A stretch of DNA of 32,000 nt from Thermoproteus tenax Kra 1 (GCF_000253055.1 NC_016070.1:540001-572000); one strand, 5' to 3'. Positions 8,869 to 30,242 are shown, counted from the first letter of the stretch. Made by a program: numbers and translations. The notes: generated by a model from the letters alone, not told the origin.

Positions 8869-8884
8869 GATGAAGTCTCCGACC

Positions 8885-8897: not shown

Positions 8898-8914
8898 CGC
8901 TTATTAGACCGGGC

Positions 8915-9469
8915 ATGAGGAGGCTCCTTCTGATAATAGCCGCGGTCGCCGTCCTTGCTGCGCTGCTCCTCGCTCTGTGGAGCCAACAGCACAGGCCCGT
9001 AGGGCGCGTCGCCACGATCCTTGTTGCCTCCCCAGCCTTTGCGAACGGCTCGTTTATACCTGCCAACTACACTTGCGATGGAGCCGACGTCTCTCCACCT
9101 CTACGTTGGTCCGGCGTACCTCAAGATGCCAAGGCCCTCTTAGTGGCCGTCGTGGACGTCGACGCGCCTGGAGGATACTTCGTGCACTGGGTTTTGTACA
9201 ATATTCCGCCCAACGTCACAAGTCTGCCTTCCAATATTCCCAAGCAGCCCATTGTGAAGTATGGCGAACAAGGGACCAACGACTTCGGCAAGGTTGGGTA
9301 CGGAGGCCCGTGTCCACCGCCCGGTCCGCCCCATCGTTATATCTTCATAGTTTTGGCCCTAGACTCGCAGCTCGACGTACAGCCCGGCGCGTCTGACAGA
9401 GAGATACTCAGCGTCGCCTCCTCGCATGTGATCGCATCGGGCGAAATAGTCGGCCTCTACGGTCGTTGA
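8915..9469 (+). CDS. membrane-anchored/secreted PEBP (YbhB/YbcL, Raf-kinase-inhibitor-like) family protein
   Basis: The N-terminus MRRLLLIIAAVAVLAALLLALW is a signal or anchor helix. PEBP motifs follow: DVDAPGGYFVHW and GYGGPCPPPGPPHRYIF. I prefer ATG 8915 over track start 8870 on promoter spacing. Confidence 0.8.
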   Translation: MRRLLLIIAAVAVLAALLLALWSQQHRPVGRVATILVASPAFANGSFIPANYTCDGADVSPPLRWSGVPQDAKALLVAVVDVDAPGGYFVHWVLYNIPPNVTSLPSNIPKQPIVKYGEQGTNDFGKVGYGGPCPPPGPPHRYIFIVLALDSQLDVQPGASDREILSVASSHVIASGEIVGLYGR

Positions 9470-13163: not shown

Positions 13164-13215
13164 GTCTCCTCCCCGCTCCACACTAAAATTTCGCGCTTCG
13201 AGGTGTACATGCCGT

Positions 13216-14061: not shown

Positions 14062-14065
14062 ATTA

Positions 14066-14764
14066 TTAGCGTATCAGGATCTCGCTTTTAACTCCTTCTC
14101 TCGATATAGTGATAAGTGTGCCGTTTGCCAACGGAGCCCAACCTTCAGAGCTCAGAGGCTCTGACGCCACAACTATGGCGTCCCCCTTGTGGACAACTGG
14201 GATAAAGTGGGGATCTTCGACTAGGCGATATGTAAAAACGTGGGCCTCTACGCGCTTGAGATCCACTAAGGCTACGTTAAGTACGGGCTCCTCTGGGTCG
14301 AGGTACTTGATAGCGACTTCCGCGGTCTGCCTCAGAGCCCGGATGTCCGCCCCCAGCTCCACGAAGGCCTTGAGGAAGAGCTCGGTATCTGTTGAGCCGC
14401 CTGTGGAGGTATCGATTCCCATGGCCCTCAGCTCTCCCTCGAACTTTACTCTATCTATAGTGCCGTTATGAGCTATCGCGAAATCGCCGTATATTATAGG
14501 ATGTGTGTTGGCGAGCGAGATGCTTCCAACCGATGCCAGACGCGAGTGGAAGAGGTAGACCGCGTACCCTCCTGGGGGCTCTCGGTACGACTCCCATATG
14601 GGCTTGACGGACTTGATAACGCCGAACTCTCCATCTCTGACGTACAAGACCCCCCAGCCCGATCCATGGCTCCAGCCCTTGGTCTTGTCTTGTCTAGAGA
14701 TCTCTATGAAGGATCTACGAAAAATAAATGGGGGATCCCCAAATGAGAGAAAAAATCTACACAT
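14066..14764 (-). CDS. stand-alone class-II (Ntn) glutamine amidotransferase (YafJ/COG0121-like)
   Basis: The start MCRFF... would give an N-terminal Cys nucleophile. HSRLAS, NTHP and AHNGTI blocks are present. Its ATG overlaps the glnA stop (TAATG, 14762-14766). The track extension to 14860 lies inside glnA and is Arg-rich. Confidence 0.7.
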   Translation of the reverse strand: MCRFFLSFGDPPFIFRRSFIEISRQDKTKGWSHGSGWGVLYVRDGEFGVIKSVKPIWESYREPPGGYAVYLFHSRLASVGSISLANTHPIIYGDFAIAHNGTIDRVKFEGELRAMGIDTSTGGSTDTELFLKAFVELGADIRALRQTAEVAIKYLDPEEPVLNVALVDLKRVEAHVFTYRLVEDPHFIPVVHKGDAIVVASEPLSSEGWAPLANGTLITISREGVKSEILIR

Positions 14765-16074
14765 TAAGCGACCTCCAAATACTGGTCGTACTCCCAGCGG
14801 GTTATGACGTTCCAAGTCGCGTCCCAACTGCCGCCCGCGTTGGCAAGATAGTCGTTCCACTCCCTCTCCTTGAGGCTCAGATACGCCTTGACCAACTGTT
14901 GAGGCAACATCTTGGCTGTGATCCCCTCGGTGGCCAGCTTGGCGGCCTCGCCCAAGTGCTTGGGCGTCTCCCTCACTCCTTGTAGATCGTAGGCTATCTC
15001 CTCCACGGGTCTCGGAGCCTCCAACTTCCTCTCGAGACCGTCAACCGCCGATAGAAGGATTGCCGAGAACGCCAGATATGGGTTTGCCGATGGGTCAGGG
15101 TGTCTGTATTCGAACCTGTTTATCTTCTGGGCGTAGTACGGTATTCTGACCATAGCGGAGCGGTTGCCTAAGCCCCAGACGACGCGGGTCGGCGCCTCGT
15201 GGTGCGGCACAAGTCTCTTGTAGCTGTTGACCAACGGGGCCACAAAGACGCTGTTGGCTAAGGCGTTCTCCAACACGCCGGCCACCGCCGACTTAAGCTC
15301 CGGAGTCGGCTCCTTATATGACGCGAAGAGGTTGGCTCCGTCCCTCCAGAGACTCACGTGTATGTGCATCCCGGAGCCGTTGACGCCCCAGAACGGTTTA
15401 GGCATGAAGGTGGCAGTCAAGCCGTATTTTTGTGCCACCGATTTGGCGAGTATCTTGAACACAAGTATCTGGTCGGCCACTTGTACAGGGTCGGCGGCGG
15501 GTATATTCACCTCGAACTGGCTCGGTGCAACCTCGTGGTGCGTCTTTGTGAAGCCTATCCCAGAGAGATAGAACTGCTCTATTATCTCCTCGATAACTGG
15601 CATAGTTTCCTTCAACGGATATCCCTCGAAGTAGGCTCCGTTGTCAACTAACGATGGTGGGTTGCCTCTTACAATGAAGAACTCGACCTCGGCGCCGAAT
15701 CTCGCCTCGTATCCCCTAGATTTGGCGTACTCAACCACTTGCTTGAGCGCGTTGCGCGGATCCATGGGATGCGGCTTGTTTCCGTCGAGCGTGCTAGTGA
15801 ACGCGAGCGCAGTCTTGCCCCCGCTCCACGTCTCTATATAGATTGCGTTAGTGTCCACTTGGGCCACGAAGTCGCTCTTGTTCACAGTGGTGTAGGCAGG
15901 TATCGATGATCCGTCGTAGGCTATCCCATCAACAAACGCGTCGCGTGCTGCGTCGATTGGAAGTATCTCCAGCTTTGGTCTACCGAAGATGTCCACTATC
16001 ACGAATTTGACGTATTTTACGCCGGCCCCCTTTAGTAGCCTCCACGCGTTTAATCCTTCCGGCATAACGCCCAT
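14764..16074 (-). CDS. glnA: glutamine synthetase type I
   Basis: GS motifs are present: YDGSSI, HHEVAPSQFEV, KPFWGVNGSGMHIHVS, NSYKRL and GNRSAMVRIP. The track start at 16137 is a TTG codon. The ATG candidates are 16074 (MGVMPEG) and 16065 (MPEG), and the latter is about 25 nt from GTTTTTAT. Confidence 0.9.
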   Translation of the reverse strand: MGVMPEGLNAWRLLKGAGVKYVKFVIVDIFGRPKLEILPIDAARDAFVDGIAYDGSSIPAYTTVNKSDFVAQVDTNAIYIETWSGGKTALAFTSTLDGNKPHPMDPRNALKQVVEYAKSRGYEARFGAEVEFFIVRGNPPSLVDNGAYFEGYPLKETMPVIEEIIEQFYLSGIGFTKTHHEVAPSQFEVNIPAADPVQVADQILVFKILAKSVAQKYGLTATFMPKPFWGVNGSGMHIHVSLWRDGANLFASYKEPTPELKSAVAGVLENALANSVFVAPLVNSYKRLVPHHEAPTRVVWGLGNRSAMVRIPYYAQKINRFEYRHPDPSANPYLAFSAILLSAVDGLERKLEAPRPVEEIAYDLQGVRETPKHLGEAAKLATEGITAKMLPQQLVKAYLSLKEREWNDYLANAGGSWDATWNVITRWEYDQYLEVA

Positions 16075-16194
16075 GTTCGAAGGGCATAAAAACTTTTCTT
16101 GTAAAAACATCAAAAGTATCCCGAAATATATAGGCAATATATACCATGTGAGTTCCCTTTTTTTTGGAACAAATTACTATAAAATCGGCGAATA

Positions 16195-18285
16195 TTAGTT
16201 TCCTGCTACTAGGACACCCAGCTTTTTGGCCACCTCGCCGTCCAAACTCCTTAACAAATCTCTATTTCCAACCATATGATAGTAGTCAGTTATACCGCCT
16301 GCACCCATAGCCAGCTTTAGTTCTTTAGTCAAACTATATATAGTATTTTCATACCATTTTCTTTTCACAGCGTAGCTACCTGCGGGCCTCTTGTGGATTT
16401 GGTCGAAGACTTCATAGGGCTCTACCAGATCAGCGCCTAGCGCGGCCATCTTATAGACGTCTGCGCCGTTGTTCAATTTGCCCACCGCTATTATCGTCAT
16501 CCTCTCTCTAACGCCCGTCTCTCTAGCCCTTATGTCCAACATAGAGACAGCCTCCTCGAGCCAAACATCGCCTCCCAACCTCTCGTCGACCACTATGACT
16601 CCCTCCTCGGGCTCCAGCCTCTTCGTGGGCGGGACTCTCACGTGGTCGTAGTCGTTTAGACAGTATCCGCGCTCCGGGCATCCGTTGCCGTTCACCAGAG
16701 CGCCGGCGGCGTAGCCGGCCATCACAGCCGCCCTCTCATAGCCGGGCACCACTACGGGCGTGTCTAACTCAAACCCATTTATATATACCTTAGTTCTCAC
16801 GTCCTCTCTGTACGGATCAACGGAGGGATGTGTCACTTGGGCCGCCTCAATCCTCAAGAGGTCCAGAGGTCTCCTCGCCGGATATGTGTAGCCGGGCACT
16901 ATCCCGCCCATGCCTATTACCGGCGCTGCGCCCTCCTCGTAGACCTCTCTGGGCAGAACTGGGGCGTAGTCCTGATAGAAGGCCAATTGCCCCCTCTCCA
17001 TTAGATCGACGCCCACAGTCTTGGCCACGTCTTCATCAACGTAGTAGATCCCCAATAAATCCCTTCTGGACACCAACTCTCTTACGCTGTTCATCCCTAG
17101 GGCATACAATATGGCCTTCAGGCCGTTCCTCAGCCCCCTCAGATAGTTGCGCAACGCCTCGGAGGCCCATGCAATGTCCAAGTCGGGCCTCATACCTATC
17201 ATATTAGTGAGGGAGGTCGGGCACCCGCCCGTATGGCATGAGTGGCACATGATACAGCCCATCGCCAGAAGGGCAGCCGTGCCTATGTTGGCCATATCGG
17301 CGCCGAGCGCTATCAGCTTCGCTATGTCCGCTGCGCTGTATAACATTCCGCCGCCTATCACTAAGAAGTTCTGCCTCGCTCCGTTCTCCCTAAGCCACTT
17401 GTCCACTACAGGTATCGCGTAGTCGATTGGTATCCCCAAGTGGTTTCTGACTGCAAGCGGCGTGGCGCCAGTGCCGGCACCTGCGCCGTCGATAATGATG
17501 CCCTCGGCAGTGGACCTGGCGGTACCCACAGCGACGTACATTATCTTGTTCACCGCCGCGACCTTCACGAGGACCGGCTTGCCGGTGAGATCTCTCAAGG
17601 CCTTGACCCTCTGTGCTAGATCCTCTATGGAGTATATGTCGTGATGCGGCGCAGGCGATAGGGCCTCGCTGCCCTCCGGTATCTTCCTCAGCTCGGCGAT
17701 TATCTTAGTGACTTTTCTGCCCGGCAGATGGCCGCCTATGCCTGGCTTTGCGCCTTGGCCTATCTTGATGTTGACGGCGAGCCCGGCCCTCAGCAAGTTC
17801 ATGTCCATGCCGAAGCGGGCTGAGGCCCACTGAACCACTATGTTCCTATACTTGGCGACCTCGGGATGGAGACCTCCCTCGCCTATTCCAGCCACGACTC
17901 CCTCCTCTGTCGCCGCCTTGGCTATAGCTATGTTCGGATTGCCGCTTAAAGCGCCGAAGGACATATCGCCGAGATACACAGGGAGGGAGAGCTTTGTGCC
18001 GAAGAAATCTATGCCAACGTCGACATCGAGCCTATCGGCGACCTTCACGAGCTCGTTGACATCTCTAGGCCTCAGATCCTTGAACGCCATTCTGTCTAAA
18101 AGCCGACCGGTCTTGGAGGGTCCCTCCTCCAGCGCGTAGGGCACTAAACCTGTCTGAGCCGCATATCTTACGTATTCTATCTTCTCGTGAGACCAAAACT
18201 CAGCTATTCTATGTATCGCCGGGCGCAAATATATATTAACCTGGCGCACTATATATGTTATCGACGAAATATATAAGCTTAACAT
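16195..18285 (-). CDS. GltB-like glutamate synthase FMN-binding (domain 2, COG0069) protein with an extra C-terminal degenerate barrel-like half
   Basis: Motifs present are LPVYLGDMSFGALS, IKIGQGAKPGIGGHLPG, SPAPHHDIYSIEDL and IIIDGAGAGTGATP. The Cys cluster is GCIMCHSCHTGGCP. The 696-aa length compares with roughly 450-500 aa for single-domain relatives. The ATG at 18285 has TTTAAAG about 29 nt upstream. Confidence 0.8.
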   Translation of the reverse strand: MLSLYISSITYIVRQVNIYLRPAIHRIAEFWSHEKIEYVRYAAQTGLVPYALEEGPSKTGRLLDRMAFKDLRPRDVNELVKVADRLDVDVGIDFFGTKLSLPVYLGDMSFGALSGNPNIAIAKAATEEGVVAGIGEGGLHPEVAKYRNIVVQWASARFGMDMNLLRAGLAVNIKIGQGAKPGIGGHLPGRKVTKIIAELRKIPEGSEALSPAPHHDIYSIEDLAQRVKALRDLTGKPVLVKVAAVNKIMYVAVGTARSTAEGIIIDGAGAGTGATPLAVRNHLGIPIDYAIPVVDKWLRENGARQNFLVIGGGMLYSAADIAKLIALGADMANIGTAALLAMGCIMCHSCHTGGCPTSLTNMIGMRPDLDIAWASEALRNYLRGLRNGLKAILYALGMNSVRELVSRRDLLGIYYVDEDVAKTVGVDLMERGQLAFYQDYAPVLPREVYEEGAAPVIGMGGIVPGYTYPARRPLDLLRIEAAQVTHPSVDPYREDVRTKVYINGFELDTPVVVPGYERAAVMAGYAAGALVNGNGCPERGYCLNDYDHVRVPPTKRLEPEEGVIVVDERLGGDVWLEEAVSMLDIRARETGVRERMTIIAVGKLNNGADVYKMAALGADLVEPYEVFDQIHKRPAGSYAVKRKWYENTIYSLTKELKLAMGAGGITDYYHMVGNRDLLRSLDGEVAKKLGVLVAGN

Positions 18286-18295
18286 TAGGCAGATG

Positions 18296-18305
18296 CCTAT
18301 ATAGG
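18296..18305. promoter_or_regulatory. perfect 10-bp palindrome CCTATATAGG between the TATA-like box and the start codon of the GltB-FMN gene
   Basis: I read this directly from the sequence. It lies 11-20 nt upstream of ATG 18285 and contains the GCCTAT core seen in other nitrogen-gene promoters in this window. Confidence 0.4.
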
Positions 18306-18347
18306 ATTCGTTTAAAGCAATATATCAATCAATTTGTTTTTGATGAG

Positions 18348-18368
18348 CTTATTAAGCTTCTTATTAAG
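18348..18368. promoter_or_regulatory. two tandem copies of the 9-bp palindrome CTTATTAAG with a 12-bp period; the first copy extends to the 13-bp palindrome AGCTTATTAAGCT
   Basis: I read this directly from the sequence (18348-18356 and 18360-18368). It lies 63-83 bp upstream of ATG 18285 inside an AT-rich spacer. Confidence 0.35.
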
Positions 18369-18439
18369 AAATCCATTTAATTTTATAATCTAATATAAGG
18401 TAGACTTGCTCTATTAATTTAATGTCGCACCGATATCCT

Positions 18440-20113
18440 CTATCTTTTAGGTTTTATGATAGTAAATATATCATTTTCTATTTTTATATTTTCATTAAAT
18501 ATTTCATTGAATCTTTTTATATAATAATTAAGTTTATTTAGTTCATCTTCATTGAGCTCCCTTTGTTCAATCTCTATTTCGTCCTCGCGTCTGCGTTCCT
18601 CTTTCAGCCCATCTAGTTCAAGCGACCTAAGGTAGCGCTCCCACGCCCTTCTATCCATGTGGCTTACGGCATCTCTCGGCACCTCGCCTCTTATAAAGAT
18701 CTCGCCGCCGACCATGCCTCTAGCTATCATGTCCCCTACAGGCTCGTCGTTCGTGGCCCTCAAGACGATTATAGTTCCTCTGCCCATGTACTCACCCAAG
18801 TATTTCCCGGCGGAGCCCCCTATAACGACCGTGGCTCCTCTCAACTGGATGCCCGCCCTGTTGCCCGCGTCCCCATAGACGTAGATCTCCCCGCCTCTAG
18901 CCGCTTGGCCTAATGTGTCTCCCGCGTTCCCATAGACGGCGGCCAGACCTCCGTTCATCGCGTCGCCGAAGTCGTCTTGTACGTCGCCGTAGACGTAGAA
19001 GAGGCCCCCCGACATTACGTTGGCTGAGGCGTTGCCCACAGTCCCCCACACCCTAAGAATCCCCGACTCCATGCCGTTGCCCAAATATCGATGTCCGTTG
19101 ACGTTGACCACTGAGACTTCGCCCCTTTTGGCCAACTCGGCTCTAACGATAGATGCCAACGATATTGCGTCGTAGAGAGATGCGTCTATGGCGTCTTGAG
19201 GTGGCTGAGGCAAGTCTGGGTAGATATACCTTCGTCTGAAGTTTCCCTTCAGCTCGTCGCCCTCAGCGATAATGTATTCTCCCCCTCTCAGTGCCCAGAC
19301 TGATGCGGAGGGCATGACGGCCCTAATGGCGCCAATCTCAGAGGCCACGGCGAGGACGCCGTCGGCTACGCCGACATACAGCGGTCTGAAGTGGTTCGGG
19401 TCCACGAACGCGCCAAATATGGGCTTAGATCCGCCTACGATGAAGGCCACGGCGTAGGGGCCGTCGAGCCGCGCCCATCGGTACCTCCTTCCGTACATTA
19501 GCTCTTGGACTGCCTCCTCGATGCCCACCTCGTTGGCCAAATAGGCCAACAGATACGCTATGGCCTCGCTATCGTTGCCAGTGAACTTGGCGTGCATTCT
19601 GTATTTAATGAAGTTGACGTTTGCGCCGTAGCTGCTTAGATCTCCGTTGTGAACTATCGCCACGTCACCTGCGGCAAACGGGTGGGAGTAGTATGGCATT
19701 CTGCCGGGACTGTTGGTTGGATAGCGCGTATGACCTATCCAGATCTTGCTTTTGAGCCCGTCCACTCCGTAGATTCTCGGGATGTCCTCCGGCCACCCTA
19801 CTACTTTATATATGTCTATCCATTTACTATTTAGATAAATATATCCCTCTATATCCTTATATTCGTTGAGCTCTACATCAAAAATATTGCCTGGAAGTTG
19901 TATAAATTTCTCGCCTATAGGTTTATAGGAAAAAGCCTTGATGCGGGGTCTATCGGAGGGTCTATAGAGGGCAACGCCGGCGCCATGCGGCGTACCCCTC
20001 TCCCTCATTGTGGCGAGGGCCCTCACCACGAGCTCTATCGGCACCTCAGATGAAGTCGAATAGATTCCAAATATGCCGCACATGAGCGCTCCATATAGCC
20101 TATATAAAAGCAT
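18440..20113 (-). CDS. fusion of a class-II (PurF/GlmS-like) glutamine amidotransferase domain with a GltB C-terminal GXGXG beta-helix domain
   Basis: The MCGIFGIY nucleophile context and IGHTRYPTNS and VHNGDL blocks mark the amidotransferase domain. GXGXG-type repeats follow: GNASANVMSGGLFYVYGDVQDDFGDAMNGGLAAVYGNAGDTLGQAARGGEIYVYGDAGNRAG...GSAGKYLGEYMGRGTIIVL. The mature N-terminus needs Cys. Either ATG 20083 (MCGIF) is the start, or 20113 is the start and a 10-residue propeptide is removed. Confidence 0.8.
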   Translation of the reverse strand: MLLYRLYGALMCGIFGIYSTSSEVPIELVVRALATMRERGTPHGAGVALYRPSDRPRIKAFSYKPIGEKFIQLPGNIFDVELNEYKDIEGYIYLNSKWIDIYKVVGWPEDIPRIYGVDGLKSKIWIGHTRYPTNSPGRMPYYSHPFAAGDVAIVHNGDLSSYGANVNFIKYRMHAKFTGNDSEAIAYLLAYLANEVGIEEAVQELMYGRRYRWARLDGPYAVAFIVGGSKPIFGAFVDPNHFRPLYVGVADGVLAVASEIGAIRAVMPSASVWALRGGEYIIAEGDELKGNFRRRYIYPDLPQPPQDAIDASLYDAISLASIVRAELAKRGEVSVVNVNGHRYLGNGMESGILRVWGTVGNASANVMSGGLFYVYGDVQDDFGDAMNGGLAAVYGNAGDTLGQAARGGEIYVYGDAGNRAGIQLRGATVVIGGSAGKYLGEYMGRGTIIVLRATNDEPVGDMIARGMVGGEIFIRGEVPRDAVSHMDRRAWERYLRSLELDGLKEERRREDEIEIEQRELNEDELNKLNYYIKRFNEIFNENIKIENDIFTIIKPKR

Positions 20114-20182: not shown

Positions 20183-20656
20183 GTGTTTGGAGGCCGAGGA
20201 AGGGGATATTATAAGGCCATTGTATTATATCTACTCTCGTCGGGGCCCTTAAGCGGCTACGAGATAATTAAGGCGATAGAGAACGCGTTCAAGGGCAAGG
20301 TAAAGCCTTCGCCGGGCACAATTTACCCCCTTCTAAAATATCTGGAGGAGGAGGGCTACATAACCTCGGAGGAACAGCCCGTGGGAAGGAAAAGGAAGAA
20401 GATCTATAGGTTGAACGAGAAGGGGAAGGAGCTATTAGCTCAATACTCCAACGACCCAGATTTTGTCCAACTCATGGCCTATTTTAAGGAGGGGGGCACA
20501 GCCCAGTTGGACATTATATCTTCTATAATCGAGGAAGTGAGGTTCCTCTCCGAGATCTTCGACGAGCTGGAGACGCACGATAGGGCGAGACTTCAGGAGC
20601 TCCACGCGACAGTGGCCGAGTTCTTAGAAAAAATAGCGAGACGCCTTGCGTCATAA
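20183..20656 (+). CDS. PadR-family winged-helix transcriptional regulator
   Basis: The wHTH pattern is LLSSGPLSGYEIIKAIENAF...PSPGTIYPLLKYLEEEGYITSEE...GRKRKKIYRLNEKG. The GTG start has CATTTATAC about 25 nt upstream. Confidence 0.85.
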   Translation: MFGGRGRGYYKAIVLYLLSSGPLSGYEIIKAIENAFKGKVKPSPGTIYPLLKYLEEEGYITSEEQPVGRKRKKIYRLNEKGKELLAQYSNDPDFVQLMAYFKEGGTAQLDIISSIIEEVRFLSEIFDELETHDRARLQELHATVAEFLEKIARRLAS

Positions 20657-20688
20657 AACTTAAATATATCGATATATCTATTCGCTCT

Positions 20689-22818
20689 ATGAATAAAGCG
20701 TGGTCGTTCGCGATAGTAGCGCTCCTCCTTCTCTTGGCACAGACCGAGGCCGCGGGCGTTATCCCGGTCTATATAGGCATCAGCGTACTCCAGGCTCCGC
20801 CTATAGCGCGCCCGGGCTCTCTAGTCCAACTTACCATCCTTATAACTACCACATCGCCTATGGGGCCTGTAGAGGTGATCGTGAACTCGACTAAGCTCCT
20901 CGTCTTGACCGGAGGTCGATACGAGCTGGCCGGCTTAGCTCCAGGTCAGCCCATCCGACTGACCTCTGTAGTAGAAGTCCCCATAGGCGTGGGCCCCGGC
21001 TCCTATAATGTGACAGTCTCCTTAGTGAGCCCGGCCGGCGGCCGGACGATCCGGAGCTTCAACTACACTGTAACGGTGGAGCCGCTCGACTTCGGCGCGC
21101 TGGTCGTCCCCGTCGTTAGACAGCCTCTTGTCCCAGGACAGCCCGTAGAGCTCCCAGTGTTGCTGTTCAACCCCACGCCTGACGCCATGAAGGCATATGT
21201 GGACGTCGTAGGGGGCCCCTTCGCGCAATACCTCAACGCTTCTGCGTCTTGCTCCTCCTACGTCCCCCCATTCTCCAACTCCACTTGTGTTATTCCCCTA
21301 GTGGTTAAGCCCAACGCTTCCTCAGGCGTCTACGTGGCTCAAGCGAATGTAACTTACGTTGATCAAAATGACGGGTCGGCGGTCGCATTCGCTAAGAAGT
21401 TCAACGTGACAGTGCTTCCGCCCCCAGACTTCAACCTGGCGCTTCTGCCGAACGGCGCCGTGATCGTAGGCCAGCCCACTATCTTGACTCTGGCCGTTTC
21501 AGCGTCGGGCGCCGTACCTCCTACAAACGTCACCATTATACCGCTCAATACGACCGACATCCATTTCGTCTTCAACGAGGTTAAAATGCCCATTTTGACC
21601 ACGGCACAGATACCGTTGGAGGCCTTCGTGGAGCACTACGGCACAGTAAAAGCCGACTTTGAGATCTGTTATTTTGTAGGCTCCTGCACAACGAGGGAGG
21701 TCACCTTGTTTGTACCGCAGCCAGACGTTGCTGTCGACGTCTTCGCCAACCCGCCTCTCTCATACCCAGGCTCGATAGTCCAGTTGAACATCGTCGTCTC
21801 GGCGAATAGGCCAACGGGGCCTATCACGATCAGTGTGAACTCCTCATATCTCAAGATACTTGAGGGAGCGATGGCCGAGCTACCTGGGTTAGCCCCCGGC
21901 GCGCCAGCGACGATAACCGCCGTTGTAAAGGTGCCCGACCAAACAACTCCGGGGGACTATCCAATTACCATGCAAGTTGGGGACGAAGAGTACACCTATC
22001 TGGTCCACGTAGAATCTCCGAGCGTCTTGATACAGAGCGTCCTCATAGAGCCTCCGGTAGTAGTGTCGGAGAGTCTGTTGCCCTATGTAAAGGCCATTGT
22101 CTCCTTAGTCAACACCGGCGTTGTACCCGCGCGCGATGTAGTGGTGCAGCTGAGCGGGGTCCCGGTCGTCGGGAACTCCACTGTGCCTCTCGGCGTGTTG
22201 CCGCCCGGCCAGCCTGTCCAGATACCGTTCCTCCTTAACGTCACTGGCTTAAGCCCCGGCGAGGTCGAGCTGAGGGCCGACGTCAGATGGCTCGGCGGCG
22301 CGGCAACGGCCAGCGCGCCGCTCACTGTGTTGCCCAAGGCCGATTTAGAGGTCAATTACACTGCTGCGAACGCACAGCCGGGTTCAACGGCTATAGTGAC
22401 TATCACTCTGACCAACAGAGGGCCGGTGGCTGCCAAAATGGTCTCACTCCAGTGGACGCCCAACCAGATCTTCCAGCTCCACACGCCCAGTTCTGCTACG
22501 CCTACTGCCAACCTGTTGGAGTCAAACGTCAGATTCTTGGGCGACATAGCGCCTGGGCAGAGCGTCTCTACTACATATCTCGTTGACGTCTCTAGCGATG
22601 TGCCCGCCGGAGTCTACTACGCGACTATAGTAATAGAGTGGAACGAGACGGGGGCTCTATATCCGGTTGTAGAGACTGTGACAATACCTATACGAGTGAG
22701 CCAGACCGTCAACTGGCTAGAGGTGGGACCTCTGGCGCTTGCCTTGCTCATAGCAATAGTCGGCGTCGCTCTGATCATCAGAAGGAGATCGGGGCATAGC
22801 AATAAGTCCCAGCCTTAA
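20689..22818 (+). CDS. large secreted, C-terminally membrane-anchored surface protein built of CARDB/Ig-like beta-sandwich repeats (COG1361-like)
   Basis: The signal peptide is MNKAWSFAIVALLLLLAQTEAAG and the C-terminal TM helix with basic tail is LALALLIAIVGVALIIRRRSG. At least 6 repeats carry the (L/I)xPGxxxxxxxxVxVPxxxxxGxY pattern. By my count there are about 15 N-x-S/T sequons. Confidence 0.75.
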   Translation: MNKAWSFAIVALLLLLAQTEAAGVIPVYIGISVLQAPPIARPGSLVQLTILITTTSPMGPVEVIVNSTKLLVLTGGRYELAGLAPGQPIRLTSVVEVPIGVGPGSYNVTVSLVSPAGGRTIRSFNYTVTVEPLDFGALVVPVVRQPLVPGQPVELPVLLFNPTPDAMKAYVDVVGGPFAQYLNASASCSSYVPPFSNSTCVIPLVVKPNASSGVYVAQANVTYVDQNDGSAVAFAKKFNVTVLPPPDFNLALLPNGAVIVGQPTILTLAVSASGAVPPTNVTIIPLNTTDIHFVFNEVKMPILTTAQIPLEAFVEHYGTVKADFEICYFVGSCTTREVTLFVPQPDVAVDVFANPPLSYPGSIVQLNIVVSANRPTGPITISVNSSYLKILEGAMAELPGLAPGAPATITAVVKVPDQTTPGDYPITMQVGDEEYTYLVHVESPSVLIQSVLIEPPVVVSESLLPYVKAIVSLVNTGVVPARDVVVQLSGVPVVGNSTVPLGVLPPGQPVQIPFLLNVTGLSPGEVELRADVRWLGGAATASAPLTVLPKADLEVNYTAANAQPGSTAIVTITLTNRGPVAAKMVSLQWTPNQIFQLHTPSSATPTANLLESNVRFLGDIAPGQSVSTTYLVDVSSDVPAGVYYATIVIEWNETGALYPVVETVTIPIRVSQTVNWLEVGPLALALLIAIVGVALIIRRRSGHSNKSQP
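20794..21024 (+). repeat. internal repeat A (77 codons) of the surface protein
   Basis: It aligns without gaps to 21748-21978 (APPIARPGSLVQLTI...LAPGQP...VVEVP..GPGSY against NPPLSYPGSIVQLNI...LAPGAP...VVKVP..TPGDY). I counted about 35 of 77 identical residues by hand. Confidence 0.7.
21748..21978 (+). repeat. internal repeat B (77 codons) of the surface protein
   Basis: See repeat A for the gapless hand alignment. Confidence 0.7.
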
Positions 22819-22850: not shown

Positions 22851-23267
22851 GTGTTCGTATCTCTTGAAGATATCCTAGAGAGAGTTAAGGCAAAAACATT
22901 AAAAGAGGGGGCTCCATGCGCGCCCGGTAATATAGACATTGTGTTGTCCGACGATCTCTATCTTTCGGGCAACACAGCGGTTCTCAAAACGCCGGAGGGG
23001 CACAGATGTTTAGATATCGGCATTCTCTCGGAGGGTATACAGTCCGTTGCGTATCTCAGAATAGTTAAACAAGCACAGTTCAAGACTCTGGAGCCGCCCT
23101 ACGTCGAGATATCTGGCGATGAGGACAGATATCTGGTCCTGGGGGTCTACAATAACAAGGTCTATATGGCTGAGTGGTCGGGGATCAGGTTGTGTTGCTC
23201 ATGGATTGTCGATATAAGTTTAGATGAATATAAAAAATCATATGAAATATTAAAAACATATATATGA
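22851..23267 (+). CDS. hypothetical 138-aa protein with four cysteines including a CC pair
   Basis: The GTG start has CTCATAAATC about 23 nt upstream. The stop overlaps the next ATG (ATGA at 23264-23267). I recognise no family. The cysteines sit in APCAPG, HRCLD and RLCCSW. Confidence 0.55.
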   Translation: MFVSLEDILERVKAKTLKEGAPCAPGNIDIVLSDDLYLSGNTAVLKTPEGHRCLDIGILSEGIQSVAYLRIVKQAQFKTLEPPYVEISGDEDRYLVLGVYNNKVYMAEWSGIRLCCSWIVDISLDEYKKSYEILKTYI

Positions 23268-23836
23268 TATTTCAATCAATATTTGAAAAATTTAATCTCA
23301 ATATCAATGATAAGGAGATGGCCATATTGGCGTCCATTTTGGCCAACGAGCCCGTGACGGCGTACAAAATAGCCGTAGAGAATAGGATGCATTTCTCCTA
23401 CGTCTACAAGAAGGTTGAAAGTTTCGAGAAAGCAGAGCTCGTGGGCTATTACTGTGAGCCCTACGATGGAAGAAAACTGTACTACTTACTCCCCAAGGGC
23501 GTAATACTATTGTTGGGACACGAAAGGCCGGAGAGGCTCTATATTGATAAGCTGAGGGATAAGTGGCACTTGAAAGATTGGGGAGATCAGGAGATAATCG
23601 ACTTAGTCAATATAATTATTAGACACTATAGGCCGGGCATGCCCATAAACGACATTGTCATGGTCGCCTACGCGTTGTATACCAGATATCTAGCGGGTGA
23701 TATAGCCGTCGGAGATCGCGAAAGGGGCGTGCTCAACAAGCTGTTCAGAAGATCGTTCGAGGCTCTCGTAAGCCTCATAAGCTATGATTGTCTGGAAAAG
23801 TGTAAAGGGAGGCTGGCGAGTAGAGAGTATATATGA
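23264..23836 (+). CDS. hypothetical protein with N-terminal winged-helix (MarR/TrmB-like) DNA-binding domain
   Basis: KEMAILASILANEPVTAYKIAVENRMHFSYVYKKVESFEKAELVGYY...GRKLYYLLPKG fits a helix-turn-helix plus wing. ATGA overlaps occur at both ends of the gene (23264, 23833). Confidence 0.55.
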   Translation: MIFQSIFEKFNLNINDKEMAILASILANEPVTAYKIAVENRMHFSYVYKKVESFEKAELVGYYCEPYDGRKLYYLLPKGVILLLGHERPERLYIDKLRDKWHLKDWGDQEIIDLVNIIIRHYRPGMPINDIVMVAYALYTRYLAGDIAVGDRERGVLNKLFRRSFEALVSLISYDCLEKCKGRLASREYI

Positions 23837-24168
23837 CCTCGATTAAGTGCCCGGGCGAATACCGCGTAGGCAACGCAACCGTATCTCTGGACGAGTGGTG
23901 TTTTCTGAGAGATCCTCTCTCATGGAACGAGGAGGTAGCCGAGTGGCTTGCCGAAAACCTAGAGGGAATTCGCCTCACTGAGGCGCACTGGCGCGTCTTG
24001 AGATACCTCAGGTCCTACTGGGAGAAGTATGGCTTCTGCCCTCCGGTGAAGAGGCTCTTGATGGATTTGGGGGTGACCTTCAAGGATTTATACGACCTCT
24101 TTCCGTCGGGCCCAGCCGATGGCGCCTGCAAAATAGCAGGCTTGCCCCGGCCGGGAGGTTGCGTATAG
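23833..24168 (+). CDS. dsrC: DsrC/TusE family sulfur-relay protein with both C-terminal cysteines
   Basis: The 111-aa protein shows the family pattern ...W.EEVAEWLAE..GI.LTEAHW.VLRYLR.YW...G..PP.... The C-terminal arm is DGACKIAGLPRPGGCV, with CysB 11 residues before the penultimate CysA. Confidence 0.9.
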   Translation: MTSIKCPGEYRVGNATVSLDEWCFLRDPLSWNEEVAEWLAENLEGIRLTEAHWRVLRYLRSYWEKYGFCPPVKRLLMDLGVTFKDLYDLFPSGPADGACKIAGLPRPGGCV

Positions 24169-24265
24169 TATCGGATCGCCGCAAGGCGGGGCTATAGCCA
24201 AATCGGCGTTCCCTCTTAGTTTCAACGTCAAACTGCAATTTAAATACACGGTACTATCTACCCCC

Positions 24266-24694
24266 ATGAGCGCTGAGGAGAGAATCTTCAGAGCTTTGTC
24301 AGATCCACAGAAACAGGAGGCTTTGGCCGCTTTGTTGGAGAATATCGATGTAATAAAGGACCTCGTCGCTCTTCTGGCCGAACTTAAGAACGCCGGCGTA
24401 CTTGAGGGCTTGGCCGGCCTCCTGGCCCTCATGAGGGCCTTTTCCGGAGATCTATTGGGCAGAGATGTGGCAGAGAAGGCCGCCAAGATGTTAGACCTTG
24501 CCTCAGCTTTCTCCCTCCTTGGCGCAAACGTGAACAATGTGGCGTGTCTCTCGAGGGCTGTGGCCGAGGCTGACGCCTCAAATCCAGCGGGGATATACAG
24601 CCTTGTCAACTCTCTACAAGACCCAGACGTGCAGAGAGGGCTAGGCTACTTCCTCTCATTTATGAAGGCCTTGGGCAAGTGTATCAGGGGCTAA
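24266..24694 (+). CDS. DUF1641-like helical protein (orphan copy)
   Basis: The C-terminal motif LQDPDVQRGLGYFLSFMKALG and an N-terminal Leu-rich helical region are shared with the ORF at 29640-30242. CAATTTAAATAC lies about 25 nt upstream of the ATG. Confidence 0.6.
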   Translation: MSAEERIFRALSDPQKQEALAALLENIDVIKDLVALLAELKNAGVLEGLAGLLALMRAFSGDLLGRDVAEKAAKMLDLASAFSLLGANVNNVACLSRAVAEADASNPAGIYSLVNSLQDPDVQRGLGYFLSFMKALGKCIRG

Positions 24695-26623: not shown

Positions 26624-26664
26624 AATGGCCTATCATTATTTAATAATATCACTTGGGATAGGCC
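26624..26664. promoter_or_regulatory. promoter box 2: an 8-bp inverted repeat GGCCTATC (26627-26634) / GATAGGCC (26657-26664) bracketing a 22-nt AT-rich TATA region, 2 nt upstream of ATG 26667
   Basis: I read this directly from the sequence. It has the same architecture as box 1, so it is a candidate operator overlapping the promoter. Confidence 0.45.
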
Positions 26665-26666
26665 CC

Positions 26667-27716
26667 ATGCCCTACGTTCACCCCGCCGTCCTTGAGTTTG
26701 AGAAAATGGTTTCAGACAAAGAGGCCTACCGCAGACAACTGGAGGAGTGGGTTAAGTACTCATGGCGGTGGGCCCGCAACGATAAATACAAGCTGGTATT
26801 CCGGGTACAAGCGTCAGCGTTGAGAGCCATGAGGGAGTTCTTGGACTCGAAGGGCTTCGTAGAGGTCCTGTCGCCGATAGTGGGGCCCGTCACAGATCCC
26901 GGGATTAGAGGCGCCAAACAGGCCACAATAGATTTCTATGGCGCTGAATACAAAGTGATGTCCTCCGCTATACTGTACAAACAGTACATGGCCGCCTCAC
27001 TGGGCAAGATATATTTCGTCAGCCCCAACATACGCCTTGAACCCAACGACAGCATCTATACAGGCAGACACTTAGTTGAGTTCTATCAGCTGGATCTCGA
27101 GATGTACAAGGCCTCATATGTCGACGCAATGGATCTAGCCGAGGAGCTTGTGGCGTATACAGTCAAGTACATAAAGGATGTCCACGGAAAGGAGCTCGAA
27201 GAAAAGCTGGGGAGACAACTGCCTGAGTTCAAGAGGCCCTTCAAGAGATACAGCCACAGAGAGGCGATAGAGTACGTCAATAAACTCGGCTGTAAGAATC
27301 CGCCTAGGGAGGAGCTCATGTGGGAGTGCGAAAAAATCATGTCGTCCTATCACGACTCGCCGTTCTTTGTGTACGACTACCCGAGGGGCGCAAGAGGCTT
27401 CTATGATAGAGAGGATCCCGAGAGGCCCGGGATTCTCCGCGACTTCGATATGCTTTACCCCGAGGGCTTCGGCGAGGCTATCAGCGGCGCCGAGAGGGAG
27501 TTCGAGCCCGCCAAGTTGGTCGCAAGGATAAGAGAGATGGGCGAGGATCCCATGAAGTACTCTTGGTTCCTCCAGATGGCTAAGGAGCTGTACCCTCTAC
27601 AGACCGCGGGGTTCGGCATAGGCGTGGAGAGGTTGACGAGATATCTGTGCGGCCTTAGGGCGGTCTGGGAGGCCCGGCCCTACCCGAAGGTGGCCGGAAT
27701 AGTCGGAGGGCCCTAA
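26667..27716 (+). CDS. class-II aminoacyl-tRNA-synthetase catalytic-core paralogue without anticodon-binding domain (AsnA-like / archaeal asparagine synthetase A-like)
   Basis: Motif 1 is GFVEVLSPIV, motif 2 is IRLEPNDSIYTGRHLVEFYQLDLEM and motif 3 is GFGIGVERLTRYLCG. Only about 45 residues precede the core, which leaves no room for an OB-fold. I prefer ATG 26667 over track start 26625 on promoter spacing. Confidence 0.7.
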   Translation: MPYVHPAVLEFEKMVSDKEAYRRQLEEWVKYSWRWARNDKYKLVFRVQASALRAMREFLDSKGFVEVLSPIVGPVTDPGIRGAKQATIDFYGAEYKVMSSAILYKQYMAASLGKIYFVSPNIRLEPNDSIYTGRHLVEFYQLDLEMYKASYVDAMDLAEELVAYTVKYIKDVHGKELEEKLGRQLPEFKRPFKRYSHREAIEYVNKLGCKNPPREELMWECEKIMSSYHDSPFFVYDYPRGARGFYDREDPERPGILRDFDMLYPEGFGEAISGAEREFEPAKLVARIREMGEDPMKYSWFLQMAKELYPLQTAGFGIGVERLTRYLCGLRAVWEARPYPKVAGIVGGP

Positions 27717-27732: not shown

Positions 27733-28140
27733 TTAGATAAACAGGACCTGGCCGCCCTTAGCTTGTTCTAAGAAGGTGGTGACGCCTACTACATCGTCGA
27801 CGAGCGTTGGGTCGAAGTCCTCCTTCTTCAGACCTGCGGCCTCGGCCATCATCGAACAGACGTATACTTTGGCGCCCATAGACTTCGCTTGTTTTAACAT
27901 GTCCTTCCAGCTGGGAGCCTTGAGGCGGGCCATCCCCTCCTTAAGTTTCGGAACCATGCCCTCAAACTCCTTGGGCCACACCTCGCCCATCGGCTGCTTG
28001 AGCAATTTGAACATGGCCCATCCAGTGAAGAATATGTATACCTCATAGCCCAAAGCGGCGGCCGCCTGAGATATTACTCCTACTGGTATCATTTTATCGT
28101 CGGTGCCCGTAAACACTATCATTGAAATTTTGTCTGCCAT
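27733..28140 (-). CDS. DsrE/DsrF-like family sulfurtransferase (DsrE3/COG2210-like)
   Basis: The 135-aa protein has MIVFTGTDDKMIPVGVISQAAAALGYEVYIFFTGWA, the conserved Cys context AKVYVCSMMAEAAG, and the C-terminal GGQVLFI. I place the start at ATG 28140 (MADKISM). Confidence 0.75.
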   Translation of the reverse strand: MADKISMIVFTGTDDKMIPVGVISQAAAALGYEVYIFFTGWAMFKLLKQPMGEVWPKEFEGMVPKLKEGMARLKAPSWKDMLKQAKSMGAKVYVCSMMAEAAGLKKEDFDPTLVDDVVGVTTFLEQAKGGQVLFI

Positions 28141-28172
28141 GAGTTTGTTGAACAAAATTCCTATTTCTACTC

Positions 28173-28193
28173 TATTACATGAAAAATGTAATA
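28173..28193. promoter_or_regulatory. inverted repeat TATTACAT-gaaaa-ATGTAATA in the dsrE/tusA divergent spacer
   Basis: The repeat has perfect 8-bp arms (28173-28180 and 28186-28193), read directly from the sequence. It lies just upstream of the GCTTTATTGG box that precedes ATG 28224. Confidence 0.4.
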
Positions 28194-28223
28194 AGAGCTT
28201 TATTGGGACTGGCCCTAGCTCCT

Positions 28224-28463
28224 ATGAGCGAGGGCCGAATCAAAGTCGACGCAAGGGGCATCGCGTGTCCTGGGCCTATAACGGAGCTCGTCAAGGCGTA
28301 CCGAAACGCGAAAAACGGAGATATAATTGAGGTATGGGCCACCGATCCCGGCTTCAAGCCCGACGTAGAGGCTTGGATTAAGAGGACTGGGAATCGGCTC
28401 CTCGAGCTCAGACAGGAAGGCAACGCCATAGTGGCCGTTATCAAGGTGACCGCCAAGAAATGA
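28224..28463 (+). CDS. tusA: TusA/SirA family sulfur carrier
   Basis: The CPxP motif is in DARGIACPGPITELVKAY and is followed by GDIIEVWATDPGFKPDVEAWIKRTGN. A start at ATG 28224 gives a typical 79-aa length. The track start at 28179 lies inside the inverted repeat. The stop overlaps the next ATG (ATGA, 28460-28463). Confidence 0.85.
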   Translation: MSEGRIKVDARGIACPGPITELVKAYRNAKNGDIIEVWATDPGFKPDVEAWIKRTGNRLLELRQEGNAIVAVIKVTAKK

Positions 28464-29647
28464 ACAAGAAGAGGGTCGTCATAGTGGGAGGCGGAGCTGG
28501 AGGGGCCATTGCGGCGAATAACTTGCCTACCAATGAATTCGACGTAGTTGTCGTAGATAAAAACGCCTATCATTACTATTGGCCTTGGCTATTATATATA
28601 GCTTTCAAGGGCTCCAAGAGGCCTATCAAAAAAGAAATAAGAGAGCTGTTGAGACCCAAAGTCTCCTTCATCCAGAGCTCTGTCACAACGATAGATCTGA
28701 ACGAAAGGCGCGTCGTCCTAGAGGGCGGCAAGGCGTTGAGCTACGACTACTTGATAGTCGCCACGGGGTCCTATCCAAATTACCAGCTCATCGGCGGGCA
28801 CGAGAAAGTAGCTGAGAAGTACGGAGACTACCATTCAACGGAGGGACGCGCTTGGGCCGTGTGGAATACTATCAACTCTCTTAGGAGGGGTACTCTGGCC
28901 ATCGTGGTCGGCGGAGATCCGTACAGGTGCCCCCCATCGCCGTTGGAGGGCGTCTTTCTGTCCGAGGAGTTCTTCAGAAGGAGGGGGCTCCAAGATATAG
29001 TGGATATAATATTCGCCGTCCCCTACCCGCGCCCCTACCCAGCTGAGCCCATGAACGAGGTGGTGGAGCCCATTCTGAAAGAGCGAGGGATCGATTACAG
29101 GACCTTTTTTACGTTGGACAGGATCGATGACGAGAGAAAGGTCGCCGTCTCCATGGAGGGCGAGGAGTTGAAATATGATGCGTTGATCGTAATTCCGCCG
29201 CACGTGGGCGCAGATATAAAGTATAGGCCTGAGGACGTTTTGACGCCCGATAGATTTGTCCAAGCCGATAAATTTACTAACAATATAAAGGGCTTCGACG
29301 ATGCGTTCGTAATAGGGGATGCGTCGGCGGTGCCTGTGGCCAAGACTGGTGTGACGGCCCATCTTCAGGCAACTGTAGTCGCCCAACGACTACAGGGCAT
29401 TGACGCGAGGAACACCGGCCGTACAAACTGTCCATTCGATCTGGGCTACGGCCTGGGCGCTTTCGTTATCAGCGACTACAACCACCCGGTGGTCAAGCTG
29501 CCGCCGTCTCGCTTCTCCCACTTGGCCAAGATGGCGTTCGCGGCCGCCTACTGGGATATGGTGAAGTATCCCGAGCTTTGGAACCCTATATTCGACGCCT
29601 ACTTTGAGGCCACCGAGCCGGAGAAGTTGGGTAGAATCTATGTCTGA
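28460..29647 (+). CDS. sulfide:quinone oxidoreductase-like FAD flavoprotein (pyridine nucleotide-disulfide oxidoreductase superfamily)
   Basis: Motifs present are KRVVIVGGGAGGAIAA, YDYLIVATGS and FVIGDASAVPVAKTG. There are only two Cys, in SQR-like contexts: DPYRCPPSPLEG (compare ..SCFGPAYE in SQR) and TNCPFDLGYGLGAFV. Confidence 0.75.
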   Translation: MNKKRVVIVGGGAGGAIAANNLPTNEFDVVVVDKNAYHYYWPWLLYIAFKGSKRPIKKEIRELLRPKVSFIQSSVTTIDLNERRVVLEGGKALSYDYLIVATGSYPNYQLIGGHEKVAEKYGDYHSTEGRAWAVWNTINSLRRGTLAIVVGGDPYRCPPSPLEGVFLSEEFFRRRGLQDIVDIIFAVPYPRPYPAEPMNEVVEPILKERGIDYRTFFTLDRIDDERKVAVSMEGEELKYDALIVIPPHVGADIKYRPEDVLTPDRFVQADKFTNNIKGFDDAFVIGDASAVPVAKTGVTAHLQATVVAQRLQGIDARNTGRTNCPFDLGYGLGAFVISDYNHPVVKLPPSRFSHLAKMAFAAAYWDMVKYPELWNPIFDAYFEATEPEKLGRIYV

Positions 29648-30242
29648 GCTCGACGTATTAGCCGCCCAGAACTTGAGCAAAGTGTTAAGCCCTGAGTCTC
29701 TGGGCGCGTTGGCCAAGTTCCTAAACATCCTTGTGAAGGCGGACAAAATAGGCTTGTTGGACACAATTAACGATCTCTTGGACGAATCGGTGACGGCGGA
29801 ATCGGCGCGGGCCCTCTTGACTACGGGCGTCTTTTCCGCCATGTTCAACTTTGAGAGGATATCCTCCCTCTTGGAGTCTCTATCCAAAAACGCCGAAGCT
29901 CTGGAGAGGGGCCTCAAGTTCATTGAGGCTCTGGACAGACTCGGGCTATTACAGAGTCTCGGCGATCTAGCCGATGAAGAGGTCGTAGGCGAGGCGGCAA
30001 GGGCGTTCTTGAACACCGGATCGTTCTATGTCTTAAACGAGATGCCCAAGATCCTCGATATATTTGCCAAGCTCAGGCTCTCCCACGCCCTCGAAAGCGC
30101 CGCGAGTGAGGTATCAGACGAGCCTCCCCCCTCGGCCGTAAACATCGTCTCACAACTGTTGTTAGACGAGGACGTGCGCAGGGGCCTTGCGTTCGTCATA
30201 AAAGTAGCGAGGGAAATAGGCGTCTCTCTGAGGGCTAAATAG
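29640..30242 (+). CDS. DUF1641-like protein with repeated helical units, translationally coupled to the SQR-like gene
   Basis: The ATG overlaps the upstream stop (ATGTCTGA, 29640-29647). Leu-rich units are LAKFLNILVKADKIGLLDTINDLLDE and LKFIEALDRLGLLQSLGDLADEE. The C-terminal LLDEDVRRGLAFVIKVAREIG matches the motif of 24266-24694. Confidence 0.6.
   Translation: MSELDVLAAQNLSKVLSPESLGALAKFLNILVKADKIGLLDTINDLLDESVTAESARALLTTGVFSAMFNFERISSLLESLSKNAEALERGLKFIEALDRLGLLQSLGDLADEEVVGEAARAFLNTGSFYVLNEMPKILDIFAKLRLSHALESAASEVSDEPPPSAVNIVSQLLLDEDVRRGLAFVIKVAREIGVSLRAK

Follow-up and report, generated by a model that had tools for sequence, protein, structure and literature searches.

A 32,000-nt stretch of the genome of Thermoproteus tenax Kra 1, analyzed here as a whole and referred to as the window, contains a unit of four genes encoding a DsrE-family protein, the sulfur carrier TusA, a flavoprotein and a DUF1641 protein. 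As judged from its fold and sequence, the flavoprotein is a sulfide:quinone oxidoreductase (SQR), putatively of type III, whereas the DUF1641 family comprises the so-called helical membrane plugins (HMPs). We consider it moderately probable that in this unit the SQR oxidizes sulfide, that the HMP supplies the quinone and that TusA and DsrE accept the sulfur as persulfide. The four genes had been picked out by an earlier note, made from the sequence alone, and they are indeed located where this note had placed them. Their open reading frames (ORFs) occupy positions 27733–28155 on the minus strand and 28179–28463, 28460–29647 and 29604/29640–30242 on the plus strand, and the products are recognized by the Pfam models DrsE_2, TusA, Pyr_redox_2 and DUF1641, respectively. 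Exactly matching T. tenax Kra1 records exist for the DsrE-like protein (CCC81299), the flavoprotein (CCC81301) and the DUF1641 protein (CCC81302). Direct reading of the sequence also confirmed the reported overlaps of the three plus-strand genes, i.e. ATGA at the tusA/sqr junction and the 8 nt ATGTCTGA at the sqr/DUF1641 junction.

Identity of the flavoprotein

The flavoprotein gene (28460–29647, plus strand) encodes 395 residues matching Pfam Pyr_redox_2 with an E-value of 1.4e-21, and its product is 100% identical to a T. tenax protein annotated as “NAD(P)/FAD-dependent oxidoreductase”. Residues 8–15 read VGGGAGGA and represent the N-terminal FAD-binding Rossmann motif, while residues 351–394 contain C-terminal helices. 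As the earlier note had observed, the protein has exactly two Cys residues and both reside in the contexts of the SQR redox pair. These are C157 and C324; the third Cys of type I enzymes is missing. They align with the Cys residues in the motifs VKCAGAP and TSCP of human SQOR, presumably the catalytic pair C201/C379 of that enzyme. C157 and C324 are invariant in 20 diverse homologues as well as in all 76 aligned central genes of the loci that we surveyed for conservation of the gene set. This survey used one genome per species and covered 80 loci encoding relatives of the flavoprotein with 44–81% identity, the neighboring genes being found by iterated profile searches of the ORFs of these loci.

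Model-based and structure-based rankings agree with this assignment. The top NCBIfam model was “type III sulfide quinone reductase, selenoprotein subtype” (E = 5e-66), with a score of 223 bits that lies below the subtype-specific cutoff of 525 bits; all remaining models yielded E-values of 8e-9 or higher. Human SQOR was the best sequence match in the PDB (7e-26), followed by FCSD and other SQRs (1e-11 to 1e-14). An AlphaFold2 (AF2) model of the flavoprotein reached a pLDDT of 90.2, and when it was compared with the PDB using Foldseek, the top 13 matches were all SQRs with TM-scores of 0.74–0.84, including 0.84 for human SQOR and 0.81 for the Aquifex SQR. FCSD scored 0.72–0.74.

The closest characterized enzyme appears to be the type III SQR (SqrC) of Caldivirga maquilingensis. 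Residues F337 and F362 of this enzyme are cited in the literature on quinone sites of SQRs. A 397-aa Caldivirga sp. protein, which is 66–67% identical to the T. tenax flavoprotein, has Phe at positions 337 and 362, corresponding to the quinone-site residues F335 and F360 in T. tenax. Sulfide-dependent quinone reduction is reported for the Caldivirga enzyme. The T. tenax flavoprotein is a probable orthologue of the C. maquilingensis SQR, with which it shares the two redox Cys residues and the C-terminal helices implicated in membrane/quinone binding.

Alternatively, the flavoprotein could be an NADH dehydrogenase of the NDH-2 type or a CoA-disulfide/persulfide reductase sitting on an HMP scaffold, as is the case for Ndh of Bacillus subtilis. 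The fold with two dinucleotide-binding domains is common to all these enzymes, NDH-2 structures matched the model with TM-scores of 0.65–0.69, and Bacillus NDH-2 is a proven partner of an HMP. Against this stands the occupation of the top 13 fold matches by SQRs alone. At the sequence level, NDH-2 proteins matched with E-values of ~1e-13, but the matches were confined to the first ~125 residues, i.e. the N-terminal Rossmann domain, and the E-values of CoA-disulfide reductases (CoADR) exceeded 1e-4. Moreover, where the second nucleotide-binding loop is expected, the sequence is VVGGDPYRCPPSP and lacks a GxGxxG motif, the SQR Cys pair is invariant, and the close Caldivirga relative has the published residues of a characterized SQR. 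We therefore find this alternative scarcely credible; an NDH-2 or CoADR identity was rejected from the ranking of folds and sequences, and the grouping with NADH dehydrogenases or CoADR that the earlier note had named as speaking against its proposal was not seen.

The DUF1641 partner and its putative role in quinone supply

The gene downstream of sqr (29640–30242, plus strand) encodes a protein of 200 residues lacking any Cys. Its match to Pfam PF07849 has an E-value of 5e-5 and a score of 23.5 bits (gathering score 21), and covers residues 186–206 of a 212-aa frame. The earlier note had described a double DUF1641. However, only one DUF1641 domain is recognized by Pfam, at the C-terminus, and the duplication concerns an N-terminal helical module of ~52 residues (residues 23–74 and 87–138; 40% identity over 52 aa). 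The proteins of Thermoproteaceae and Bathyarchaeia have two copies of this module, and the shorter ones (~130 aa) from Acidilobales and Thermofilaceae have one. Most members of the family carry the motif D-x-D-[VA]-[RK]-[RK]-G-L, and G182, L183 and G194 are conserved to at least 90%.

A search of the PDB with the 200-aa sequence alone returned no match, and word-indexed homologue searches found only 3 and 16 proteins. In contrast, a profile built from the DUF1641 proteins encoded next to SQR detected ForE1 (8rqz; 1e-7), HucM (7uus_Q; 2e-7), the latter over nearly its full length (profile positions 30–198), and YjlC/Ncp (0.025–0.05). HucM, ForE and YjlC/Ncp are DUF1641 proteins that form tetrameric hydrophobic tubes; they scaffold the Huc hydrogenase, the formate dehydrogenase ForC and the B. 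subtilis NDH-2, respectively, and let menaquinone pass between enzyme and membrane (PMC13524794; PMC8808070; PMC13433803). The precomputed Pfam label of PF07849 already reads “HMP”, indicating a change of the family name in current Pfam. Seduk et al. 2026 (PMC13433803) describe an enrichment of HMPs in Crenarchaeota and Firmicutes and state that the majority of HMP genes adjoin SQR genes; SQR is inferred there to be the ancestral HMP partner, a proposal credited to Broc et al. 2025. Proteomics of Ignicoccus also found that a DUF1641 protein and its neighboring flavoprotein increase together.

Linkage in the surveyed loci separates the HMP from the sulfur carriers. In 34 loci the gene downstream of sqr encodes an HMP, and in 33 of these the gap is no more than 10 nt. 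Among the 98 SQR-family genes in the loci, 29 are accompanied by HMP together with TusA/DsrE, 17 by HMP only, 35 by TusA/DsrE only and 17 by neither. Both redox Cys residues are kept by all 63 TusA/DsrE-linked SQRs, whereas the second one is absent from 9 of the 16 HMP-linked paralogues without TusA/DsrE. These observations suggest that the two accessory sets can be separated, TusA/DsrE accompanying the two-Cys enzyme and the HMP accompanying the flavoprotein whatever its persulfide chemistry, i.e. with or without the second Cys. Because of the paralogues lacking this Cys, HMPs may also serve quinone reductases other than SQR. Each accessory can thereby be assigned to one half-reaction, which provides a guide for annotating the many archaeal gene pairs recorded as “NAD(FAD)-dependent dehydrogenase / DUF1641”.

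These data bear on the role that the earlier note had assigned to the DUF1641 protein, namely an adaptor in a sulfur relay channeling persulfide from the flavoprotein to TusA, then to DsrE and on to DsrC. The translational coupling of the DUF1641 gene to sqr fits such a role, as does the location of genes for a two-Cys DsrC and another DUF1641 protein ~4 kb upstream, an arrangement found likewise in other Thermoproteus genomes. But a protein without Cys is unable to carry sulfur, and ForE1, HucM and YjlC, to which its family is homologous, are quinone-channel scaffolds. The association of SQR-like genes with HMP does not depend on that with TusA/DsrE, nor vice versa, as exemplified by the 35 and 17 genes having only one of the two sets. 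In addition, the linkage to DsrC is restricted to Thermoproteus. A sulfur-relay adaptor thus is very improbable. From the lack of Cys, the homology to ForE1 and HucM and the occurrence independent of TusA/DsrE, the DUF1641 protein is probably an adaptor for quinone and membrane rather than for sulfur.

Conservation of the sulfur carriers and direction of the sulfur flow

TusA is encoded at 28179–28463 (plus strand; Pfam PF01206, 2.4e-20, 72.6 bits) and contains a single Cys, Cys30 of the 94-aa frame, within the CPGP motif. As the 94-aa form has no database record and homologues span 76–83 aa, the true start is probably the ATG at 28224 (M16), which would yield a product of 79 aa. The DsrE-family sulfur-carrier gene (27733–28140, minus strand) encodes 135 residues in its deposited form, starting at 28140, and matches Pfam DrsE_2 (PF13686; 5.7e-17, 62.5 bits). 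The frame remains open up to a TTG at 28155, giving 140 aa, and in this numbering the single Cys is C100. Between dsrE and the probable tusA start lies a short AT-rich region (28141–28223; read directly from the sequence), which is presumed to be a bidirectional promoter.

The DsrE protein had been called DsrE3-like in the earlier note, a label that is not supported. DsrE3A proteins are defined by a Cys-X7-Cys motif and by linkage to genes for dihydrolipoamide dehydrogenase or hdr genes (PMC4175335). The T. tenax protein has a single Cys with Gly at position +8, and no hdr or lipoamide genes are found nearby, so that DsrE3A was rejected. NCBIfam did not assign a subgroup either, its DsrE2 model scoring 29.8 bits, compared to a cutoff of 210. 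In Metallosphaera, neighborhood to an SQR gene served to define the group DsrE4, for which a function in handling reactive sulfur species has been proposed (PMC4175335). By its linkage to sqr, the T. tenax DsrE is a candidate for this group, whose reference member is Mcup_1724.

The gene set was found to be conserved as a unit, as proposed in the earlier note: dsrE adjoins sqr in 64 of the 80 loci and tusA does so in at least 48. The order dsrE-tusA-sqr occurs in Thermoproteales, Acidilobales, Thermofilaceae, Bathyarchaeia, a Thaumarchaeota metagenome-assembled genome (MAG), Thermoplasmata and Micrarchaeia, and additionally in three bacterial MAGs (Chloroflexia, Bacillota and a proteobacterium). 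Recurrence of this order in dozens of genomes means that the arrangement is not due to chance. The divergent orientation of dsrE is real in T. tenax but peculiar to Thermoproteus: it was observed in five loci of this genus only (L001–L005), while elsewhere dsrE, tusA and sqr are on the same strand with small gaps. The carrier Cys is invariant in 65 of 65 aligned DsrE sequences and in 50 of 50 TusA sequences. Furthermore, the pairwise identities of SQR are mirrored by those of HMP, TusA and DsrE (r = 0.81–0.85). Independent gene calls and precomputed Pfam matches also place DrsE_2, TusA, Pyr_redox_2 and PF07849 proteins consecutively in Thermofilum pendens (L081; CP000505.1, 3323–5577). The flanks of the module vary by lineage and have no relation to sulfur (cupin, cobalamin adenosyltransferase, ArsR, Hsp20, MFS, purine nucleoside phosphorylase (PNP) and others), and in none of the lineages examined was a rhodanese or a persulfide dioxygenase (PDO) detected in the module or its flanks. 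In agreement with the earlier note, no genes for PDO, Hdr or DsrAB were found in the 32-kb window.

From these data the following course of the reaction can be envisaged. H2S would be oxidized at the C157/C324-FAD site of the flavoprotein, an activity known from the Caldivirga type III SQR. Two electrons would be transferred to quinone, which may reach the enzyme through or on the scaffold of the translationally coupled HMP; by homology with HucM, ForE and YjlC/Ncp, an HMP tetramer would supply quinone and remove quinol. The sulfane sulfur on the enzyme Cys would then be taken over by TusA (Cys30) and DsrE (Cys100) as protein persulfide instead of being released as polysulfide. TusA and DsrE3 proteins are known to exchange persulfide in vitro. 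Given this chemistry, the strict co-occurrence of TusA/DsrE with the two-Cys enzyme and the invariance of the Cys residues, a hand-off of persulfide from SQR to TusA/DsrE is a reasonable inference. Indirect support also comes from the sulfide response of an operon of this kind in Methylacidiphilum and from the linkage to an SQR gene that defines DsrE4. The SQR would probably dock on the HMP scaffold through its C-terminal helices. Among the positions that discriminate best between SQRs with and without a linked HMP, several are located in these helices (F360, D366, a PE insertion at 371–372 and W374), and B. subtilis Ndh docks on YjlC through the corresponding C-terminal region (PMC13433803).

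A number of observations weigh against this proposal. The C-terminal signature is confounded by phylogeny, the HMP-linked SQRs being mostly from Thermoproteota and the unlinked ones mostly from Thermoplasmata and Micrarchaeia. The AF2 monomer model of the HMP is all-helical, but with a pLDDT of 44.5 from a 19-sequence alignment it is unusable. TusA is not obligatory and is dispensable in some lineages, since in six loci of Acidilobus and relatives (L020, L022–L024, L029, L032) dsrE abuts sqr at a gap of 5–16 nt and no tusA was detected. Recombinant Caldivirga SQR reportedly bound to E. coli membranes and reduced decylubiquinone in the absence of an HMP partner, which would mean that the HMP is not strictly required in vitro. 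T. tenax is a strictly anaerobic, sulfur-respiring and sulfide-producing organism, whose genome has genes for dissimilatory sulfate reduction. Finally, the literature yielded no experimental work on the T. tenax cluster and no SQR-HMP complex that had been solved or assayed.

In view of this physiology, three readings of direction and purpose in T. tenax are possible: oxidation of sulfide into the quinone pool, an anabolic “sulfide activation”, and reductive reversal, which is thermodynamically unlikely. In the case of reversal, quinol delivered by the HMP would reduce the sulfur of persulfide or polysulfide presented by TusA/DsrE to H2S, making the unit a cytoplasmic sulfane-sulfur reductase. 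Such an activity would suit T. tenax and many other organisms having the module (Thermofilum, Vulcanisaeta, Acidilobus, Bathyarchaeia), which are sulfur-reducing anaerobes, and the DUF1641/flavoprotein pair of Ignicoccus increases along with an NrfD subunit of polysulfide reductase. However, electron transfer from menaquinol (~-75 mV) to S0/H2S (~-270 mV) is strongly uphill according to textbook potentials, and characterized type III SQRs act oxidatively. Moreover, a counterpart operon in the aerobic methanotroph Methylacidiphilum responds to sulfide (PMC10205796). We judge reversal to be quite improbable.

A purely anabolic role is somewhat easier to accept, albeit still unlikely. Here, ambient sulfide would be converted to TusA/DsrE persulfide for biosynthesis (tRNA thiolation, thiamine, molybdenum cofactor, Fe-S clusters), rather than for detoxification or respiration. 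The module is flanked by housekeeping genes, has no PDO, Hdr or Sox genes nearby and is common in strict anaerobes without an evident high-potential acceptor; in bacteria TusA serves as a hub of biosynthetic sulfur transfer, and a ThiI-rhodanese and a DsrC/TusE homologue are encoded within the window. Conversely, beyond Thermoproteus neither ThiI nor DsrC shows synteny with the module, and the Methylacidiphilum counterpart operon behaves as a sulfide-detoxification system (PMC10205796). There is also a more far-reaching scheme, which we regard as distinctly doubtful: the SQR-HMP-TusA-DsrE unit of strictly anaerobic, sulfide-producing Crenarchaeota might be a membrane machine for “sulfide activation” that is docked on the HMP and neither detoxifying nor respiratory, using the menaquinone pool as electron sink and feeding a never-released protein persulfide into biosynthetic or DsrC-linked trafficking in organisms whose sulfur source is sulfide. 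In that case, a first HMP-enzyme assembly from archaea would be at hand, which by published inference would be ancestral and might be filamentous like Ndh-YjlC. The reading that we prefer remains oxidation of sulfide with HMP-supplied quinone and transfer of the sulfur to TusA and DsrE.

Some loci deviate from the common arrangement. Acidilobales and Caldisphaera possess a tandem of the order dsrE-(tusA)-sqr-HMP-sqr2-HMP (L016, L017, L019, L020, L022–L025, L029, L030, L032), in which the second flavoprotein is just 21–32% identical to the T. tenax enzyme. Eight Thermoplasmata loci (L031, L036–L038, L040, L042, L065, L077) have sqr in another context without dsrE and tusA: a purine-nucleoside-phosphorylase-like gene, and in most of them also an MFS transporter gene, precedes sqr, which is followed by an opposite-strand gene for a long HMP-like protein (204–296 aa) and, except for L037, by a second SQR-like gene (380–383 aa). 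SQRs without an adjacent HMP gene, e.g. those of Thermoplasmata and Micrarchaeia in L043–L055, exhibit extra Cys residues at the positions of Y155 (41 of 52) and H248 (38 of 52) of the window protein, in the contexts CKCPPS and PPC, respectively. The PE insertion in the C-terminal helix is absent from 46 of these 52 SQRs.

Related systems and neighboring genes

The earlier note had presented the cluster as undescribed. While no description of the four-gene unit as such was found in the literature, TusA-SQR-DsrE4 (PMC4175335), type III SQR-TusA-DsrE (PMC10205796) and the adjacency of SQR and HMP (PMC13433803) have all been published, and the T. tenax cluster is a further example of two published pairings, i.e. 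SQR with TusA/DsrE carriers and SQR with HMP. The operon MFUM_v2_0219-21 of Methylacidiphilum fumariolicum SolV encodes a type III SQR, TusA and a DsrE2-like protein, thus having this three-gene content in common with T. tenax, and is up-regulated in sulfide-adapted cells (Schmitz et al. 2023, PMC10205796). Unlike T. tenax, it belongs to an aerobic bacterium, has the order sqr-tusA-dsrE, and no HMP/DUF1641 gene is reported for it. A “sulfur island” of Metallosphaera cuprina (Mcup_1722-1724) encodes TusA, a putative SQR and DsrE4 (Liu et al. 2014, PMC4175335), and as in T. tenax tusA, sqr and a gene of the DsrE family are adjacent. The Metallosphaera SQR is probably of another type than the T. 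tenax enzyme, because there was no Sulfolobales protein among the matches listed, which comprised 120 relatives of the T. tenax flavoprotein.

The scaffolds HucM, ForE and YjlC resemble the T. tenax HMP in being small and helical (in T. tenax according to the low-confidence model), in having a C-terminal DUF1641 head and in being encoded beside a quinone-reducing enzyme. The T. tenax protein differs by its duplicated N-terminal helical module. The cst operon of Staphylococcus aureus (SQR, CstA, CstB) likewise combines an SQR with TusA-like and DsrE-like carriers and shares the idea of a hand-off of protein-bound sulfane sulfur. There, CstA is a single fusion of rhodanese, TusA and DsrE, and a persulfide dioxygenase is included, whereas the T. 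tenax module has separate small carriers, no rhodanese or PDO in or beside it, and an HMP gene in addition.

The Caldivirga loci L010, L011 and L013 have an HMP gene after sqr as in T. tenax, and in L010 and L011 dsrE-tusA precede sqr, dsrE being inverted in T. tenax by comparison. The Caldivirga type III SQR (Lencina et al. 2013, 2020) was reportedly expressed in E. coli and studied alone, without HMP, TusA and DsrE. As an HMP gene lies directly downstream of close homologues in the Caldivirga genomes examined, the membrane binding described for this enzyme merits re-examination. The T. tenax unit in turn is a concrete target for a first structure of an SQR with its HMP, a pairing that is predicted from genomes and proposed to be ancestral.

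Three further genes mentioned in the earlier note are all present in the window, namely a two-Cys DsrC (23833–24168), a second DUF1641 (24266–24694) and a rhodanese-containing ThiI (7450–9066); the first two correspond exactly to the Kra1 records CCC81294 and CCC81295, respectively. Its suggestion of an onward link from the module to DsrC and ThiI could not be upheld: what joins them is their place in the same 32-kb window, neither belongs to the conserved unit outside Thermoproteus, and all three genes were rejected as parts of the module due to lack of synteny beyond this genus. The block at 22851–24694 (plus strand) contains three translationally coupled genes, encoding a 138-aa protein without family assignment, a 190-aa protein whose winged helix weakly resembles that of TrmB, and DsrC, which is of the canonical two-Cys form ending in ACKIAGLPRPGGCV. 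An “orphan” HMP/DUF1641 gene follows 97 nt after dsrC; its 142-aa product (PF07849, 1.5e-17) contains Cys94 and Cys139, and there is no adjacent quinone-reducing enzyme. The pair of DsrC and HMP genes ~4 kb upstream of the module is kept in the Thermoproteus loci L001–L003 and L005.

Directly upstream of dsrE, a gene for an AsnA-type archaeal asparagine synthetase was found (26625–27716, plus strand; class II aminoacyl-tRNA synthetase-like, NCBIfam 659 bits), a neighbor that is kept in Thermoproteus only. Positions 12354–20113 (minus strand) are occupied by a nitrogen-assimilation block encoding a CN-hydrolase, NAD synthase, a class-II GATase and glutamine synthetase, as well as a split glutamate-synthase-like enzyme, in which Glu_synthase and GATase/GXGXG are separate polypeptides. 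This block is followed at 20183–22818 (plus strand) by genes for a PadR-family regulator and for a 709-aa protein that contains the domains NPCBM_assoc and DUF11 and weakly matches the pilin subunit UpsA.

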